Of a stretch of DNA of 56,846 bases, positions 8,882 to 50,541 are shown in pieces. Source of the DNA: an uncultured Candidatus Saccharimonas sp. Its GTDB lineage: Bacteria; Patescibacteriota; Saccharimonadia; Saccharimonadales; OMJO01. Positions within the stretch are counted from its first letter, which is position 1. Every line of letters begins with the position of its first letter. The stretch covers positions 1 to 56,846 of the forward strand of contig CALRAM010000004.1 of the NCBI GenBank assembly GCA_943353165.1, written 5' to 3'. The position numbers were made by a program, and so were the translations under genes. Under the pieces are notes generated by a model, which did not search any database, had not been told where the DNA came from, and saw nothing but the letters and a program-made list of their open reading frames with translations.

Positions 8882-9327
8882 ACGAAAAGCCTATAATGCC
8901 AACCAAGAAACAGCGAGAATTGCTGACATTTATAGAGGCATTTATAGTTCAAAACAGCTACAGCCCTAGCTACCGCGAAATTATGAAGGGATTAGACTAC
9001 ACATCCGTGGCAACAGTGTCGTTACACGTAAATAGTCTGATAAAGCGCGGACATTTGCGAAAAAGAGAGCACTCAGCCAGGTCTCTGGAAGTAGTATCGC
9101 CCTCCGAAAAACCAAAAGTTTCTACAAATCAGATAAAACCAGCCGAAGAAAAATGGTTGGTAGACAGAGTAGAGCACTATTTTCGAGAACTAGAGTCCGC
9201 CAAACCACCTAATGTCGCCAAACTGGACGAACTATATGTACTGATAGGTGCTATGAAGGTTTTGGGTATGGACGGTGCTGTCACATCTTTTCTGCCTCGA
9301 CTAAAGGCATTGAAGGCTAATAAATGA
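8878..9327 (+). CDS. LexA-type winged-helix DNA-binding protein lacking the S24 peptidase domain
   Basis: The N-terminal sequence TKKQRELLTFIEAFIVQNSYSPSYREIMKGLDYTSVATVSLHVNSLIKRGHLRK matches the LexA DNA-binding domain. The C-terminal ~70 aa have no Ser/Lys protease motifs. ATGA overlaps on both sides. Confidence 0.75.
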   Translation: MNEKPIMPTKKQRELLTFIEAFIVQNSYSPSYREIMKGLDYTSVATVSLHVNSLIKRGHLRKREHSARSLEVVSPSEKPKVSTNQIKPAEEKWLVDRVEHYFRELESAKPPNVAKLDELYVLIGAMKVLGMDGAVTSFLPRLKALKANK

Positions 9328-10121
9328 GTATAATTGAGGCGATAATACTAGGTATAACCCAGGGACTGACAGAGTTTATACCCATTTCTAGTTCCGGGCA
9401 TCTGATTTTTATGCGACACATATTGGGTGTTTTTGGCAATGATTTGGCGTTTGATGTTGCTTTGCATATAGGTACAATATTGGCGCTAGTAGCAGTTTTT
9501 TATAAAGATATTTGGGAATTGTTCTTGGGATTGTTGGGCAAAAACGACAAAAGAAAACTGGCGTTGCTGCTAATAATCGCTACTGTACCTGCAGTTATCT
9601 CTGGAGTTTTGTTGGAAAAAGCAGCAGAGTCCACCTTTCGTTCGGTCAGGCTAGTAGCTGTGGATATGATAATAGCGGCGTTTTTTATACTCTGGGCAGA
9701 GAGTTTTGCTAAGAAACGAAAAAACCGTACAAAGCTAGAGAATACCAAAACCAAGCAGGCTATAATAATAGGTTTGGCCCAGGCTGCGGCAGTCGTGCCA
9801 GGTATATCACGTTCGGGTGCAACAATTACTGCTGGACTTTTTGCTGGCATGGACAGAGTAGCCGCTACCAGGTTTTCATTTTTGCTGGCCATCCCTATAA
9901 CGACAGGCGCAATATTAAAAGTTTTGGCTGACGGTGGCGGGCTGGCGCAAGGCAACAATCAAACTGGCTTGGTTGTAGTTGGCATAGTTTCGGCGTTTTT
10001 GAGCGGCCTTTTTGCCATCAAGTTTTTGCTGAACTATTTGGCAAAACATTCTCTGTCCGTTTTTGCGTACTATCGAATAGCCGTTGGACTGGCTGCAATA
10101 GCCATAGTTACAATACGCTAA
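9324..10121 (+). CDS. uppP: undecaprenyl-diphosphate phosphatase
   Basis: GITQGLTEFIPISSSGHL and SRSGATITAGL motifs. 265 aa, polytopic. Confidence 0.93.
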   Translation: MSIIEAIILGITQGLTEFIPISSSGHLIFMRHILGVFGNDLAFDVALHIGTILALVAVFYKDIWELFLGLLGKNDKRKLALLLIIATVPAVISGVLLEKAAESTFRSVRLVAVDMIIAAFFILWAESFAKKRKNRTKLENTKTKQAIIIGLAQAAAVVPGISRSGATITAGLFAGMDRVAATRFSFLLAIPITTGAILKVLADGGGLAQGNNQTGLVVVGIVSAFLSGLFAIKFLLNYLAKHSLSVFAYYRIAVGLAAIAIVTIR

Positions 10122-11173
10122 GTCTTTTCTACGGTAACGGATTCGTCTGATAAACCTAATCTGTAGGCCAGAGTAGAGCGTTGCCATTCCTGTACCTTGT
10201 CTATATCTGATTGGTTTTTTACCACAGTAACTTCGCCTATCTCTACTATGGGGTCATCTCTGTCCCACAACACTATAGGCAAGGCCAAGCCATGTTTTAG
10301 GACATCTGTAACTCCTCTGGAAACTTTGCCCAGCCTTATGGATTCTGGCCGATGATCATCGCCCAATTGTACTAGGTCGGTGGCGCCAGATATGGCCCAG
10401 TTAAAGTATTTGCCTGTAGCATGTCGACCCAGCCGATGAACGCGCGAGGAGGGGTCTACTCCTAGCCATTCACGTATGTTTGTGCGCATATTTTTGTTGT
10501 TGGTTTCTATCAGAGTTTCCAGGTCTATTTGTTTTGCATCTGGGTCTAATTGTTGCCTCAATTTTTGGTTAGCTCTAAAAGTTTCTGTCAGGTTCATAAT
10601 GGTTCTGGTGCGTGGAAAACTCATAAAAACGTGGCCAGCTTTTTGAGCTACTTCGCTGGCTGCCATACCAAACGCTTCTATGGTAGTTACCCCTCGGCTG
10701 ATACCTAGGCCGTTATTTTCCTGCCAATTATCGTGCTGAGTGGCCTCTGCCCAGCTGACAGCAAACTCCGCCACATCTATCATTTTCTGGTGCGTAGTCA
10801 GGTGGAACTGATGGCGCCCCTCTTTTCTGTGTAGTTCTGACATGCTGACTAGCGGGCGTTGCCTTTTGAGTTCGTCTACTATGGCGTGATGCATATTTTT
10901 GGCAGCTATATCGGATAGCTGGTTTATGCCCAAAGGTCCGTCAAATTTTGCTGGCGCTGGATACAGATGGGTGGTTTCTAATAGTTGCGAAGGGCTGGCG
11001 GCAGCATCGAACAGCATTGGGCTAAAAAGTCCTCCTGATGACTCGATATGTTTGACGGTAGTTTCGGCTAGAGCTTCGTGTATTGATAGCCTGTCGTCAT
11101 AGGTAAGTTCGGTGTAGTTAAAAGTTGCCATAGTGCGACAAGCATAGCGTGTATCTCTGTTATATTCAAGCAA
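10118..11173 (-). CDS. hypothetical soluble protein with no recognisable domain
   Basis: 351-aa ORF with an alternative start MATFNY at 11131. Divergent from the riboswitch-controlled gene. No motif I can assign. Confidence 0.65.
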   Translation of the reverse strand: MLEYNRDTRYACRTMATFNYTELTYDDRLSIHEALAETTVKHIESSGGLFSPMLFDAAASPSQLLETTHLYPAPAKFDGPLGINQLSDIAAKNMHHAIVDELKRQRPLVSMSELHRKEGRHQFHLTTHQKMIDVAEFAVSWAEATQHDNWQENNGLGISRGVTTIEAFGMAASEVAQKAGHVFMSFPRTRTIMNLTETFRANQKLRQQLDPDAKQIDLETLIETNNKNMRTNIREWLGVDPSSRVHRLGRHATGKYFNWAISGATDLVQLGDDHRPESIRLGKVSRGVTDVLKHGLALPIVLWDRDDPIVEIGEVTVVKNQSDIDKVQEWQRSTLAYRLGLSDESVTVEKT

Positions 11174-11235
11174 ATAATACTACAGCATTCGTAGTAAAAG
11201 CGTGATATTCTGAGAATGTATTTAACAATCAAAAT

Positions 11236-11393
11236 GCTGGAATCCTGTGAAATTCAGGAACTGTGCCGCAACGGTTTACCCTGAGCTTGTCGAAGGGTTA
11301 AAGTCCGATACAGCTGTAATTAATCTCCCGGGCAGGAGTGATATAGCGACTGTGCGATAACCTGCCAGGGAAATACCCGAAGCAGGTTTTTTT
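11236..11393 (+). promoter_or_regulatory. cobalamin riboswitch-like aptamer (compact form, ~11236..11314) plus antiterminator/terminator expression platform (11331..11393)
   Basis: GCUGGAAUCCUGUGAAAUUCAGGAACUGUGCCGCAACGGU closely parallels the conserved Cbl core (E. coli btuB leader, from memory: GGGAAUCCAGUGCGAAUCUGGAGCUGACGCGCAGCGGU). A B12-box-like AAGUCCGAUACAGC is closed by pairing with 5' GCUG. GGCAGG(11331-36)/CCUGCC(11361-66) competes with CCUGC(11361-65)/GCAGG(11382-86) plus U7, which runs into the AUG at 11394. Confidence 0.75.
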
Positions 11394-12752
11394 ATGGAAG
11401 CGATTCATTCAACAGAACAATACTACCCTTTGGAGCATAGGGGTGTAATATCGGCTGCCGAACTATTTGACCGCTCAGATATCGAGGCTGACGCGTGGGA
11501 TATGATAAAAAGCAGAAGAGATTTGCCTGTAGTTGAGACATCAGAACGCGAGCGACACGACAATGCTCGGACTGCCCTCATGGAAGCCCTGACGGCATCT
11601 GGGCATTTGTCTAGGGTAGAGATTAGTGGATCGGTAGAGGAGATAAACGCACAGGTCGTCGGCCGACTATTGAATGGCTGGGACGAGGCTTTGCCAGTAC
11701 ACGAAAAAATGCGTCGTTTTGCAGAACTTTGCGAAGAACTAACTATCCATAAAGTTCATTTGTCCATAGTATCTGGCGATCTACCTCCAGGAACCGCTGT
11801 CAGCGTTATCTCTGACTACCCAGGGGCCATGACAGATTATGATGCCACATCGCTGGGCTACAGGTCGGTAAACAAAAAGGGGATGGTGCGTTCTACTGGC
11901 TTGCGTCAGGAGTCTGACGGCAGTTTTACACGAGTCATAGAACAGGTAAGTCGTAGCAACGGTACATGGAATAGTACCTACGAGTTTATGAAGTCCAGCG
12001 GAATAAAGACGGCAACTGGTTACCCGGACATTGTGGCGTTACAGACACCTTTGATTTACGCGGTAGAGGATTACGCGGACGGTGTAGTGGATTTGGTGCG
12101 TCGCCTAGATATGCATACCGGACAAGGCGTAACATATGGCGATCCTGAAGGTCAAAAAAAACATCCAGCATACGATCAGCTACGCTCTGAATCAGCCAGA
12201 AGGGAACGCGATATACAAGGATTTGTAGGTGACTTGGCAAAACTAGAAGAACAGCTAGATATTTTGCAACGCAACGGGATGACTGTCAACGAACGCAACA
12301 TTATTTTCAAAGAAGAAGTAGACCGAATATTGACCGCTATTTGTACGCTGGAACCAAACTATGCAACCGATACATACGGCAAAAAAGCAGAAAAATATTT
12401 TTATGAGGCTGCCGTTCTGGTTTCTAGAGGAGAAACTGGCCTTGCCCAACAACTACTCGATTCTACTAGTCACCTAAAACAGACGGTTACATTTTGCGGT
12501 ATGTCTATATCTTTAGAAGTCGCCAAAGGAATGGGATTGTGCGTAAATAGTTATGGTGAAGCAGTGGAAAAAGGCAAGGAGTCGTGGCAGTGGAAGAGCG
12601 GTGTCTGTCAGGTAAAATCTTGCCCTACCAGACCAGGCAAAACTACTGTTGGCCCATGTAGTGTTTGCAAAGGCTGTCAGGCTCGGTTTGACAAAGGTAT
12701 AAATCCAACAGCATCAAAACCAATTCCAAAAAAGCCGCAGTCCAGATTATGA
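11394..12752 (+). CDS. hypothetical soluble protein with a C-terminal Cys-rich zinc-ribbon-like module
   Basis: 452-aa ORF directly behind the riboswitch terminator. C-terminus is WKSGVCQVKSCPTRPGKTTVGPCSVCKGCQARFDKG. ATGA overlap with nadD. Confidence 0.7.
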   Translation: MEAIHSTEQYYPLEHRGVISAAELFDRSDIEADAWDMIKSRRDLPVVETSERERHDNARTALMEALTASGHLSRVEISGSVEEINAQVVGRLLNGWDEALPVHEKMRRFAELCEELTIHKVHLSIVSGDLPPGTAVSVISDYPGAMTDYDATSLGYRSVNKKGMVRSTGLRQESDGSFTRVIEQVSRSNGTWNSTYEFMKSSGIKTATGYPDIVALQTPLIYAVEDYADGVVDLVRRLDMHTGQGVTYGDPEGQKKHPAYDQLRSESARRERDIQGFVGDLAKLEEQLDILQRNGMTVNERNIIFKEEVDRILTAICTLEPNYATDTYGKKAEKYFYEAAVLVSRGETGLAQQLLDSTSHLKQTVTFCGMSISLEVAKGMGLCVNSYGEAVEKGKESWQWKSGVCQVKSCPTRPGKTTVGPCSVCKGCQARFDKGINPTASKPIPKKPQSRL

Positions 12753-13345
12753 AAAAAATAGGAATATACAGCGGAACCTTTGACCCCATACATAATGGGC
12801 ATATTAGTTTCGCGCGGGAGGCTATGAACAAATACGGTCTGGATAAAGTTTTTTTCCTGCCAGAGCCTAGGCCACGCAGAAAACAGGGAGTCAAGGCTTT
12901 TAATCACAGGGTAGAGATGCTTCGTTTGGCACTTTTACGACAACCCGGAATGGGCACTGTGATACTAAAACATTCCAGGTTTTCTGTACAATACACCTTG
13001 CCGTTACTGTTGGATAGGTTTGCGGGTACTCGAATGTATCTGTTAATCGGCGAAGATACATTGGATCATCTGGTGGATTGGCCAAATGTAGAGGCGCTGC
13101 AGGTGGTTAATCTGATAATTGGCGTCAGGACAAAATCTGTTGCCGAAGTTTGTAGCACTGTTGAAGCTATATGCATAACCAAAGGCGTTGTATTTCGCTA
13201 CAATGTATTTCAAGCCCAAAACTCTGATATTTCATCTAGTTATGTCAGAAAAGAATTGCGTCACGGCAAAAAACCAGCAGGCCTGAACAGCAGTGTCCAG
13301 AAATACATATCGGCCAACAATCTCTATTCTATTTCTGGCGAATAA
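12749..13345 (+). CDS. nadD: nicotinate-nucleotide adenylyltransferase
   Basis: IGIYSGTFDPIHNGHISFAREA (the (H/T)xGH nucleotidyltransferase motif) followed by FFLPEPRPRRKQG. 198 aa. Confidence 0.88.
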   Translation: MKKIGIYSGTFDPIHNGHISFAREAMNKYGLDKVFFLPEPRPRRKQGVKAFNHRVEMLRLALLRQPGMGTVILKHSRFSVQYTLPLLLDRFAGTRMYLLIGEDTLDHLVDWPNVEALQVVNLIIGVRTKSVAEVCSTVEAICITKGVVFRYNVFQAQNSDISSSYVRKELRHGKKPAGLNSSVQKYISANNLYSISGE

Positions 13346-15012
13346 TGGCTTTGTAGATAGAGCAGATGTTTGTCTCGGTATTTTTTGAACTCGCTCTTTT
13401 TTAGGCCATTTTTGCGTATAAAAGAACCAATTCTTTCGCTACCGATATAGTGCGGTAGAACTACGTAACTGGCACCCAGCGTATACAGTTCGGCGGCTTC
13501 TTGGACGGAGTCGGCGTGCAATATGACTACAGCTTCTGGGTTTATATCGGCCATCAGTTTGGACAAAAAGACATTTGTTTCGTGGGTGCTGATAGTCGAT
13601 ACGATTAGTTTGGCAGTGGCGGCTCCTGCTTCTATTAACAGCTCGGAATCTGTAGCATCTCCATACAAATAGGGGAACTTGTGGTTTTCTAGTATTTCGA
13701 TAACCGCAGGGTCGTAGTCTATGACAACATAGCGTTTGCCTAGACTCTGAAAAACCTTTAGGAAATCATGACCACCTTTTTGGTACCCAAAGAGTATCAG
13801 TTCACTCCGTTGGCGGGTTTCGTGCTCTCCCCTAACTTTGCGTTTTTCAAAAATAGACAGAGGAGTTTTTAGTAAGGTATATATTTTTTCTGAATATATT
13901 ATCAGGTAGCTGGAAATAGTTATAGTCACAAGTGCAACCATGGTAGTAATACTGACCAAGTTGCTAGAGATTAGTCCATTGCGATTGCCTACGATTACGA
14001 ACACCAATGAAAACTCGCTTATTTGGGCCATTGTAACGGCAGTTTTGAAACTAGTCCTTTTGGTATAACCCATGATACCCATGATGAACATGATTAAAAG
14101 CGGTTTTATGACTATAACTATGCCCGTGGCAACCAGGATAGCAGGAACGATAGACCCAAAATCTTGAAAGGTCAGCCTGGTTCCCAGAGCTATGAAAAAA
14201 ACCACGATGAAAAAGTCACGCAGTGGACGAAGCCGGGCGCTTATCTCGTGAGTGTAAGGCAGGGAAGCCAACGCCACTCCAGCCAGCAAGGCACCGATCT
14301 CTATGCTAAAACCCGCTCTTTCAAATAGTGCCGCACTGCCAAAACCCCAGCCTAGCGCAAACAAAAACAGCACTTCTTGACTGCCAGCTATCTGTTTGCT
14401 AAGTTTTGGCAAAACAAAGTTTCCTATCAGGATTAGGGGTAACGCTATGGATAATCCTTTTAGGGCCAGCAAACCCAGCTCTGATGGCGAAAAACTACCA
14501 GTATTTTGGCTAGTAACGAACAGCAAGGCTATGGTAGCCAAGACGTCTTGGACTATCAACATTCCAGTCGAAACTTTGCCATACAAACGGTTTTGTTCTT
14601 TTAGGTCGCTGAGTAGTTTCAGGATGATAATGGTGCTACTAAAAGACAGCGCCACGCCAAAAAATATGGAATCCATACGATTGAGTCCCAGTAGTGAACC
14701 GCTGCCCCAGGCAAATAGTGTTATCAGCACAACTTGGACTAGACCACCCAGGGTAGCTACTTTGCCGACTTCTTTGATGACCTTGGGATTTAAACCCAGG
14801 CCGATGATAAACAGTAGTAGGGCTATCCCAATTGTTGAAAAAACTTCTATGGTTTCTGTGGATTTAACTAGATGCAAAACTGAAGGGCCAACGATGATGC
14901 CCGTCAGTATATGGCCTATTATCAGAGGCTGTTTGAGGGAGCGCATGATGATGGCTATCCCGGCGCCAACGGCTATGATTAGGCTTAGTTCGGCGAATAG
15001 GTTTTGGTGCAT
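13324..15012 (-). CDS. cation:proton antiporter (CPA2/Kef-type) with a C-terminal RCK/TrkA-N domain
   Basis: 562 aa with ~12 TM helices, then ILFGYQKGGHDF...VVIDYDP Rossmann-like RCK. The 3' end overlaps the nadD 3' end by 22 nt (convergent). Confidence 0.88.
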   Translation of the reverse strand: MHQNLFAELSLIIAVGAGIAIIMRSLKQPLIIGHILTGIIVGPSVLHLVKSTETIEVFSTIGIALLLFIIGLGLNPKVIKEVGKVATLGGLVQVVLITLFAWGSGSLLGLNRMDSIFFGVALSFSSTIIILKLLSDLKEQNRLYGKVSTGMLIVQDVLATIALLFVTSQNTGSFSPSELGLLALKGLSIALPLILIGNFVLPKLSKQIAGSQEVLFLFALGWGFGSAALFERAGFSIEIGALLAGVALASLPYTHEISARLRPLRDFFIVVFFIALGTRLTFQDFGSIVPAILVATGIVIVIKPLLIMFIMGIMGYTKRTSFKTAVTMAQISEFSLVFVIVGNRNGLISSNLVSITTMVALVTITISSYLIIYSEKIYTLLKTPLSIFEKRKVRGEHETRQRSELILFGYQKGGHDFLKVFQSLGKRYVVIDYDPAVIEILENHKFPYLYGDATDSELLIEAGAATAKLIVSTISTHETNVFLSKLMADINPEAVVILHADSVQEAAELYTLGASYVVLPHYIGSERIGSFIRKNGLKKSEFKKYRDKHLLYLQSHYSPEIE

Positions 15013-28983: not shown

Positions 28984-29059
28984 GGGGGTGTAGCTCAGTG
29001 GTTAGAGCAGTCGGCTCATAACCGATTGGTCGAAAGTTCAATTCTTTCCACCCCCACCA
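28984..29059 (+). tRNA. tRNA with CAT anticodon, most like tRNA-Ile2 (lysidine-modified); elongator Met is not excluded
   Basis: The cloverleaf folds by hand: acceptor GGGGGTG/CACCCCC, D arm GCTCAGTGGTTAGAGC, anticodon arm GTCGG-CTCATAA-CCGAT, T arm GAAAG-TTCAATT-CTTTC, encoded CCA. The anticodon arm CGGCTCATAACCG resembles known Ile2 tRNAs. A hairpin-plus-T-tract terminator follows (29062..29090). Confidence 0.9.
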
Positions 29060-30596: not shown

Positions 30597-30671
30597 TGGT
30601 AGCGGGGGCAGGACTCGAACCTGCGACCTTGTGGTTATGAGCCACACGAGCTGCCACTGCTCTACCCCGCG
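30597..30671 (-). tRNA. initiator tRNA-fMet (CAT)
   Basis: Minus strand: CGCGGGGTAGAGCAGTGGCAGCTCGTGTGGCTCATAACCACAAGGTCGCAGGTTCGAGTCCTGCCCCCGCTACCA. It has an unpaired 1:72 position (C:U) and high similarity to bacterial initiator tRNAs. CCA is encoded. Confidence 0.9.
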
Positions 30672-31235: not shown

Positions 31236-31312
31236 GGCGGCGTAGCTCAGATGGTTAGAGCGCAGGACTCATAAGCCTGAGGTCACTGGTTCAATTCCAG
31301 TCGCCGCTACCA
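31236..31312 (+). tRNA. elongator tRNA-Met (CAT)
   Basis: GGCGGCGTAGCTCAGATGGTTAGAGCGCAGGACTCATAAGCCTGAGGTCACTGGTTCAATTCCAGTCGCCGCTACCA. The cloverleaf folds. It resembles Gram-positive elongator Met tRNAs. An extended -10 TGGTATATT lies at 31202. Confidence 0.88.
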
Positions 31313-50430: not shown

Positions 50431-50470
50431 ATGAAAAAACCGCCCATAAAGGACGGTTCTTTCATTGGAG
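50426..50470. terminator. 20-bp hairpin (bidirectional terminator) that includes the last 5 nt of tRNA-Lys
   Basis: CTCCAATGAAAAAACCGCCC-ataaa-GGACGGTTCTTTCATTGGAG. On the minus strand the core AACCGTCC/GGGCGGTT is followed by T6. Confidence 0.7.
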
Positions 50471-50541
50471 GGCCCAGCGAGGCTCGAACTCGCGACACGC
50501 GGCTTAAAAGGCCGCTGCTCTACCAGCTGAGCTATGGGCCC
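50466..50541 (-). tRNA. tRNA-Lys (TTT)
   Basis: Minus strand: GGGCCCATAGCTCAGCTGGTAGAGCAGCGGCCTTTTAAGCCGCGTGTCGCGAGTTCGAGCCTCGCTGGGCCCTCCA. Clean cloverleaf, with CCA encoded. Confidence 0.93.

Follow-up and report, generated by a model that had tools for sequence, protein, structure and literature searches.

The 56.8-kb stretch of Saccharibacteria DNA analysed here (contig CALRAM010000004.1, hereafter the window) very probably encodes, at positions 11221-11393 of the plus strand, a class-II cobalamin (corrinoid) riboswitch that forms the leader of a two-gene operon and acts as an OFF switch. Judged by sequence and pairing pattern, the leader RNA belongs to the cobalamin riboswitch clan (CL00101), of which it is a lineage-specific member, i.e., a known kind of RNA, and most likely it shuts off the first gene of the operon, X452, by premature termination of transcription. 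Its resemblance to cobalamin riboswitches exceeds chance, as is clear from the E-value of the match to the Rfam family RF01689, from the conservation of the element in all orthologous loci, and from covariation well above the controls. The unusual feature is the strict link of this riboswitch, across Saccharibacteria, to an orphan gene whose product has an unmatched fold, which makes X452 a novel lead.

The predicted aptamer and its conservation

A permissive scan of positions 11100-11450 with the Rfam models matched the leader to RF01689 (AdoCbl-II, where AdoCbl is adenosylcobalamin) at 11222-11320 on the plus strand and over the full length of the model; the score was 30.6 bits, where the gathering score is 36.5, and the E-value for the interval scanned was 2e-5. 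This was the best and the sole credible Rfam match of the leader, and in the same scan RF00174 (Cbl-I) gave no match to it. Aligned to RF01689, the window copy has 27 extra nucleotides in L6, whereas J3/4 and J6/3 are shortened by deletions. Since the window copy is below threshold, support was drawn from the orthologous leaders and from covariation.

The orthologous loci comprised 23 from genomes and 17 from metagenomes, all encoding X452 relatives at 32-96% identity, plus one more. A lineage-specific covariance model (R1) built from 31 leaders found the element upstream of the X452 gene in 38 of the 38 loci with enough upstream sequence; one further copy is truncated by a contig end, and locus L020 carries a second copy. 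In the window, R1 returned a single copy at 11221-11341. The gathering score of RF01689 was passed only by the leaders of L010 (39.4 bits) and L016 (41.1 bits) and by the second, transporter-associated copy in L020 (39.4 bits). Most copies fall below the Rfam thresholds, so that standard annotation misses them, while R1 recovers all. The leader of L008 (3800-3891) formally passed RF00174 (34.4 vs. a gathering score of 31.5); we discounted this pass as partly an artefact, because the P13 hairpin CUCCCGAGCAGGAG resembles the B12-box region of RF00174 and had been aligned to it. The metagenomic locus L024 (Ga0194041_10002700) shows 94-99% protein identity across the window locus at 8900-14000 and an identical aptamer; it and the window probably derive from the same population.

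To evaluate the secondary structure, we aligned the leaders by MAFFT with no structural input (A2) and overlaid P13 and the helices of class II, as drawn in the Rfam alignment, on the result. In this overlay, 96.9% of the cells were paired, compared with 78.1% in shuffled alignments and at most 43% in slid registers, double-sided changes occurred in 11 of 19 pairs, and the covariation score was 0.514 vs. 0.156 for the shuffles. Covariation was strong in P3, P4, P6 and the P13 hairpin. In P3, double-sided changes affect three of the four pairs (e.g., GCUG/CAGC vs. ACCG/CGGU); in P4, four of the five pairs covary; and the middle pair of P6 covaries between G-C in 18 sequences and U-A in 12 (CGG/CCG vs. 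CUG/CAG). P5 is uninformative in this respect because it is invariant, with CUGUGCCGCAAC unchanged in all 35+ leaders, and GGAA is near-invariant at J3/4. RNAalifold independently gave the same helices, as well as a variable hairpin within L6. Thus, pairing, double-sided changes and RNAalifold all support a four-way junction of P3, P4, P5 and P6. Two loop sequences, UGAAAUU in L4 (consensus GUGAAAUUC) and UAAAGU in L6, agree with the RF01689 consensus and are predicted to be docking partners. The size of the L6 insert ranges among the orthologs from absent to about 170 nt. By coordinates, the hairpin has grown to 139 nt in L003 (3766-3904) and to 202 nt in L004 (3704-3905), where R1 breaks the element into two hits.

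No helix equivalent to P1 was returned by RNAalifold across the leaders. When tested for each sequence separately, a P1 duplex with the 5′ flank amounted to just -1.0 kcal/mol in the window (p=0.55) and was significant in only 4 of the 29 leaders, all of them deep-branching. In L016, Infernal places the single closing helix on P1 and deletes J1/3 and P3. The RNAalifold result, the duplex tests and the L016 alignment therefore indicate that the family has one continuous closing helix. The P1 and J1/3 that Infernal draws for the window copy (4 of 6 pairs) were rejected on the basis of RNAalifold and the per-sequence duplex tests.

These data bear out most of what a first-pass annotation, made by a model from the sequence alone, had proposed for this region, namely, a compact cobalamin riboswitch of the class-II/AdoCbl-variant type. 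The core string GCUGGAAUCCUGUGAAAUUCAGGAACUGUGCCGCAACGGU is present at 11236-11275 as it was quoted, RF01689 is the best match, and L010 and L016 exceed its gathering score. The GCUG/CAGC pairing corresponds to P3, with its double-sided changes; the short hairpin, whose ACCCU and AGGGU arms are present as quoted, is a peripheral insertion in which RNAalifold finds covariation; and the large extension that had been described as missing is indeed so, as the window contains no P7-P11. The string AAGUCCGAUACAGC is found at 11301-11314, and its CAGC pairs as suggested; as a “B12-box-like” element, however, it was misnamed, since it consists of the 3′ part of L6, the 3′ strand of P6, J6/3 and the 3′ strand of P3. 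The checks suggested there gave a mixed outcome with the Rfam models, where the window copy stays below all the cobalamin gathering scores, and so by itself falls on the refuting side of the threshold named there, and only the orthologs rise above that of RF01689, and a positive one for covariation, found in P3, P4, P6 and P13 of the homologous leaders.

Predicted kissing loop, expression platform and proposed switching

Downstream of CUGUGCCGCAAC, a second near-invariant block, YCCCGAGCAGGAR, is found in every locus with enough upstream sequence. The P13 stem covaries in three of its four pairs (CUCC/GGAG, CUUC/GAAG, UUCC/GGAA, AUCC/GGAU), and its loop L13 reads CGAGCA in 30 of 32 leaders, the two exceptions being a leader with CGUGCA and the window with CGGGCA. 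The L5 sequence 5′-UGCCG-3′ is complementary to 5′-CG[G]GCA-3′ in L13 (11329-34) if one base is bulged. The sole variable position of L13 (A, G or U) is precisely this predicted bulge, the rest of L5 and L13 being invariant. In all classes of cobalamin riboswitches, switching relies on L5 forming a kissing loop with the loop of a P13 hairpin located downstream, where the kissing-loop helix always has at least one unpaired nucleotide and L13 must sit on a stem-loop (PMC5028336, PMC7367189); the role of the linker length has also been described (PMC5028336). A bulged L13 carried by the P13 stem-loop matches this published rule (PMC5028336), and the predicted L5-L13 kissing loop is consistent with the data.

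The loop and the 3′ arm of P13 could also pair with the 5′ arm of a putative terminator hairpin, to which they are complementary. In the window, this antiterminator duplex has an energy of -20.2 kcal/mol, a value reached by 1% of shuffles, and in 20 of the 32 leaders tested no more than 5% of shuffles reach the duplex energy. Compensatory changes maintain the complementarity: GGGCAGG/CCUGCC in the window is replaced by GCAAG/CUUGC in L002, GUGCA/UGUAC in L011, and GCAGA/UCUGC in L026, L029 and L033. The putative intrinsic terminator (fold energy -15.7 kcal/mol, a stem of 7 bp) ends in a U7 tract that abuts the ATG at 11394. Its 3′ arm contains GCAGG (11382-86), the only Shine-Dalgarno (SD)-like sequence before the ATG, so the hairpin should end transcription and, in addition, hide the ribosome-binding site. 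A hairpin directly before the start codon is present in nearly all the orthologs, and a run of at least four T residues ending at most 10 nt from the start codon in about 22 of 33.

Stepwise folding of the growing transcript suggests how the two structures may compete. P13 forms first (-4.1 kcal/mol), and by 11368-11372 the antiterminator takes over (-13.1, then -20.7 kcal/mol), being the minimum-energy fold once the transcript has reached 11372. The enforced OFF state (P13 plus terminator) is predicted at -19.5 kcal/mol and the enforced ON state at -21.9 kcal/mol. The choice between them is therefore plausibly under kinetic control, depending on whether P13 stays in place. Most probably, binding of a corrinoid would stabilize the kissing loop between L5 (UGCCG) and L13 (CG[G]GCA), thereby locking P13, whose loop and 3′ arm would then be unable to invade the next segment. 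The terminator at 11359-11388 with its U7 tract could then form, so that transcription would end just before the ATG with the SD-like purines buried. Without the ligand, the weak 4-bp P13 would open as the polymerase advances, and UCCCGGGCAGG would pair with CCUGCCAGGGA to give the antiterminator, which would block the terminator and leave the SD-like 3′ arm free for translation.

A mutually exclusive antiterminator/terminator with a U7 running into the AUG, and with the only purine-rich stretch before the AUG buried in the terminator, had already been recognized in the first-pass annotation. Its elements GGCAGG (11331-36), CCUGCC (11361-66), GCAGG, U7 and the ATG are all in place, and the duplex energies, stepwise folds and compensatory changes agree with the model. 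GGCAGG was thus rightly given an antiterminator role; what had been overlooked is the key coupling element, as it lies within the conserved P13 (CUCC-CGGGCA-GGAG), whose loop is the predicted kissing partner of L5.

Ligand, rival explanations and the regulated genes

With respect to the ligand, we turn to locus L020, where the second copy of the riboswitch (69.6 bits with R1, with the core and P13 identical) precedes the genes of a secreted DUF4430 protein and a multi-pass DUF6580 membrane protein; the pair is located immediately upstream of the riboswitch of X452 itself. DUF4430 is the C-terminal domain of transcobalamins (PMC4350170). The second copy therefore stands in a classic B12-uptake context, which argues that the family senses a corrinoid. 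The two proteins are a candidate B12 uptake pair in Saccharibacteria; for DUF6580, nothing was found in the literature searched.

Several observations weigh against a class-II cobalamin riboswitch in the window. The scan of the whole window at the Rfam gathering thresholds returned four tRNAs only, the leader being absent from the output, and the window copy lies under the gathering score of every Rfam cobalamin model. The closing helix P3 has only 4 bp in the window, J3/4 and J6/3 are shorter than in the RF01689 consensus, and there is no support for a P1 or a J1/3 T-loop as in the RF01689/Cbl-IIa model. The minimum-free-energy fold of the single sequence mis-pairs the aptamer and is unremarkable (z=-1.65), though such a fold is uninformative here because the RNA depends on its tertiary structure. 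A simple terminator scan found nothing in the leader, the reason being that the long, structured loop of the hairpin exceeds the 8-nt rule of the tool. As both L5 and L13 are invariant, covariation is uninformative for the kissing loop. X452 has no known link to B12 by family or fold searches, and a scan of the ~37 larger open reading frames of the window turned up neither a B12-dependent enzyme nor a B12 transporter.

An unlikely alternative is that the same cobalamin aptamer acts mainly at the level of translation, the hairpin hiding the SD-like arm and termination being minor or absent. In all the leaders, the only purine-rich sequence before the ATG (GCAGG, GAGGG or GGAG) resides in the 3′ arm of the hairpin, about a third of the orthologs (e.g., L002, L009, L012, L026, L028 and L035) show no clear T-run, and the class-II riboswitch env8 is translational (PMC5028336). 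However, in the window a 7-bp stem is followed at once by an unbroken U7, and a T-run of 5-7 occupies the same place in most orthologs. Moreover, the two modes are compatible, and dual action is the more likely reading.

It is considerably less probable that the fold was retained while the ligand changed, so that a variant subclass would sense a non-corrinoid compound, which would explain the unfamiliar gene. The low Rfam scores of most copies, the shortened J3/4 and J6/3, the absence of J1/3, and the lack of a B12 link for X452 in family and fold searches would all fit such a variant, and variants that recognize a different ligand have been described for other riboswitch classes (PMC6847200). 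Yet the L020 copy of the same RNA type stands before the genes of a transcobalamin-like binder and of a membrane protein, the L4, L5 and L6 core follows the cobalamin consensus nearly base for base, and only cobalamin riboswitches are built around an L5-L13 kissing loop (PMC7367189). As for a chance resemblance or a decayed, non-functional relic, to which the sub-threshold score and the unremarkable single-sequence fold of the window copy might point, it hardly deserves credence: the element occurs in all 38 loci, including orthologs with proteins at 32-40% identity, five helices show strong covariation, and the antiterminator shows compensatory changes, so that conservation and covariation effectively refute it. 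We thus favour a corrinoid-responsive OFF switch of class II.

The first-pass annotation described the regulated genes as neither transporters nor known B12-independent isozymes, and the family and fold searches concur; it also took the host, correctly, for a reduced-genome organism. X452 had no match in Pfam, NCBIfam, PHROGs, PADLOC or a PDB sequence profile search. Its AlphaFold2 model, based on a 113-sequence alignment, has a predicted local distance difference test score of 92.9 and a predicted template-modelling score of 0.90, and Foldseek found no match to it at E<=0.001 in PDB (best 0.4) or BFVD. There are 147 database relatives, almost all from metagenome-assembled genomes of Saccharibacteria/Saccharimonadales, and a profile search of 1.84 billion representatives gave 462; ten distant profile relatives contained no Pfam domain. 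Among the residues that never vary are several acidic and basic ones, a Cys-Gly located in a flexible loop, and a cluster of cysteines at the C-terminus. Only the C-terminal Cys-rich module (~60-100 aa) is common to many other proteins. The start of the NadD-like gene overlaps the stop codon of X452 (ATGA), so the two genes are probably co-transcribed, and a NadD-like gene lies downstream of X452 in most loci.

Since the riboswitch ties X452 to the B12 status, and riboswitch-linked unknowns are therefore candidate transporters or cofactor-handling enzymes, we tentatively propose, as a possibility, that X452 has an unrecognized B12-related function: either a corrinoid-independent substitute or a new corrinoid-handling/activating enzyme working with the NadD-like protein. 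In the former case, it could replace a corrinoid-dependent step of the lineage, e.g., in the supply of deoxynucleoside triphosphates. If either were true, host-derived B12 would be the cue that switches X452 off. Saccharibacteria (TM7, a part of the candidate phyla radiation) are ultrasmall epibionts with almost no biosynthetic capacity; to our knowledge, there is little information on the compounds that they obtain from their hosts. If B12 sensing is conserved in these bacteria, corrinoids would be physiologically important to them. We found no published report of a B12 sensor in Saccharibacteria in the searchable literature, and nothing relevant turned up there on cobalamin riboswitches or B12 enzymes, be it for Saccharibacteria or for the candidate phyla radiation.

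Upstream of the leader, a simple sigma-70 scan found no full promoter, and a cGTGaTAnnnT element precedes the aptamer with unchanged spacing in most orthologs; with the putative extended -10 element of the window (Table 1), transcription would start near 11218-11222. A palindromic motif, AATACTACAT(G/A)TAGCGT, was also observed in most orthologs; it precedes P3 by ~54-59 nt, and its spacing from the extended -10-like element, which follows it, is fixed; ACTACA occurs in 18 of 32 leaders, and the window has the variant TACTAC-N7-GTAGTA at 11178-11196. This palindrome could be an operator overlapping the -35 region. The gene for a protein with a LexA DNA-binding domain is part of the synteny and in many loci is the one just before the leader, while the divergent neighbour at 10118-11131 is conserved at its position only in the closest relatives, L006, L010 and L024. 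The GC content of the window is 43.8%. In locus L015, a contig from a metagenome-assembled genome of Saccharibacteria, a group I intron (RF00028, 96.4 bits) was detected at 1595-1830 on the minus strand, ~2 kb upstream of the X452 leader.

Table 1. Features of the leader, its surroundings in the window, and the second riboswitch locus of L020
Feature	Position	Strand	Basis or remarks
Putative extended -10 promoter element, TGaTATTCT	11203-11211	+	sequence inference
P3, 5′ strand, GCUG	11236-11239	+	pairs with 11311-11314; sole closing helix of the four-way junction
J3/4, GAA	11240-11242	+	Rfam alignment; RF01689 consensus GGGAAAu
P4 hairpin, UCCUG/CAGGA, loop L4 UGAAAUU	11243-11259	+	covariation; T-loop consensus
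P5/L5, UGU-GCC-GCA	11262-11270	+	UGCCG (11264-11268) is the proposed kissing-loop strand
P6, CGG (11272-74)/CCG (11305-07)	11272-11307	+	encloses L6
Variable L6 hairpin, ACCCU (11278-82)/AGGGU (11294-98)	11278-11298	+	RNAalifold with covariation; 21 nt in the window
Conserved 3′ segment of L6, UAAAGU	11299-11304	+	matches RF01689 consensus
J6/3 AUA and P3 3′ strand CAGC	11308-11314	+	Rfam alignment, alignment A2, covariation
Single-stranded linker, UGUAAUUAAU	11315-11324	+	between aptamer and P13; equivalent of J1/13
P13 hairpin, CUCC/GGAG, loop L13 CGGGCA	11325-11338	+	ten nt downstream of the aptamer; overlaps the antiterminator 5′ strand
Predicted antiterminator, UCCC-G-GGCAGG (11326-36) with CCUGCC-A-GGGA (11361-71)	11326-11371	+	duplex energy, compensatory changes
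Putative intrinsic terminator, stem 11359-65/11382-88, U7 11387-93	11359-11393	+	inner GGG/CCC hairpin
X452, 452 aa	11394-12752	+	Cys-rich C-terminal module; Saccharibacteria orphan family
NadD-like nucleotidyltransferase	12749-13345	+	PF01467, 6.5e-16; NadD equivalog models below cutoffs
Divergent neighbour, 337 aa	10118-11131	-	no match in Pfam, NCBIfam, PHROGs, PADLOC
LexA-DNA-binding-domain gene, 149 aa	8878-9327		no peptidase domain matched
tRNA gene	28984-29056	+	Rfam gathering threshold
tRNA gene	30600-30671	-	Rfam gathering threshold
tRNA gene	31236-31309	+	Rfam gathering threshold
tRNA gene	50469-50541	-	Rfam gathering threshold
Second riboswitch copy, then DUF4430 secreted protein (133 aa) and DUF6580 multi-pass membrane protein (192 aa)	L020, 2474-3651		

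Comparison with known cobalamin riboswitches

The predicted RNA has much in common with RF01689/Cbl-IIa (AdoCbl-variant, env8HyCbl, PDB 4FRN): the P3-P6 four-way junction with no large P7-P11 extension, the L4 T-loop, the L6 sequence (UAAAAGU in the family), P5/L5 followed by ACGGU, and an L5-L13 kissing loop, here a predicted one, with P13 a short linker away (PMC5028336, PMC6158498). Unlike Cbl-IIa, which is selective for HyCbl/MeCbl and has a P1 helix with a bulged J1/3 T-loop that contacts J6/3, the window RNA lacks P1 and this T-loop and has a single closing helix; its J3/4 reads GAA where the family has GGGAAAu, its J6/3 reads AUA in place of AGcG, and its L6 carries an additional hairpin. 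One base of L13, not two, is predicted to be bulged. Nor does L13 contain the ribosome-binding site, as it overlaps instead an antiterminator that would control an intrinsic terminator, whereas the class-II model riboswitch env8 works at the translation level (PMC5028336).

The architecture of the window RNA, with no bulged J1/3 and a short hairpin on P6, fits best the description of the AdoCbl-binding Cbl-IIb (PMC7367189), because the RNA has neither the Cbl-I peripherals nor the J1/3 T-loop of Cbl-IIa. In Cbl-IIb, which we compared by description only, J1/3 is short, paired or absent and P6 bears a short hairpin; an example from Enterococcus faecalis is devoid of J1/3 (PMC6158498). In contrast to one short hairpin, the P6 extension in Saccharibacteria ranges from none to about 170 nt.

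With Cbl-I (RF00174, the E. coli btuB leader), the window RNA shares the conserved core. The first-pass annotation had drawn this parallel with a quoted btuB sequence, and the quotation proved to be exact: it matches all 5426 complete E. coli genomes at 100% identity and is annotated there as a riboswitch. In the core, 27 of the 37 ungapped positions are identical, and one mismatched P4 pair is compensatory. The window RNA differs from Cbl-I in that it has no P2 module and no P7-P11, with nothing between its 5′ end and P3. The proposed coupling of P13 and the kissing loop to an antiterminator/terminator before a poly-U tract resembles the transcriptional switches of Firmicutes, such as B. subtilis yvrC/btuF (PMC7367189). 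It differs from them in that yvrC has a P2 arm, while in the window the U-tract runs up to the ATG and the predicted terminator also provides, in its 3′ arm, the SD-like site.

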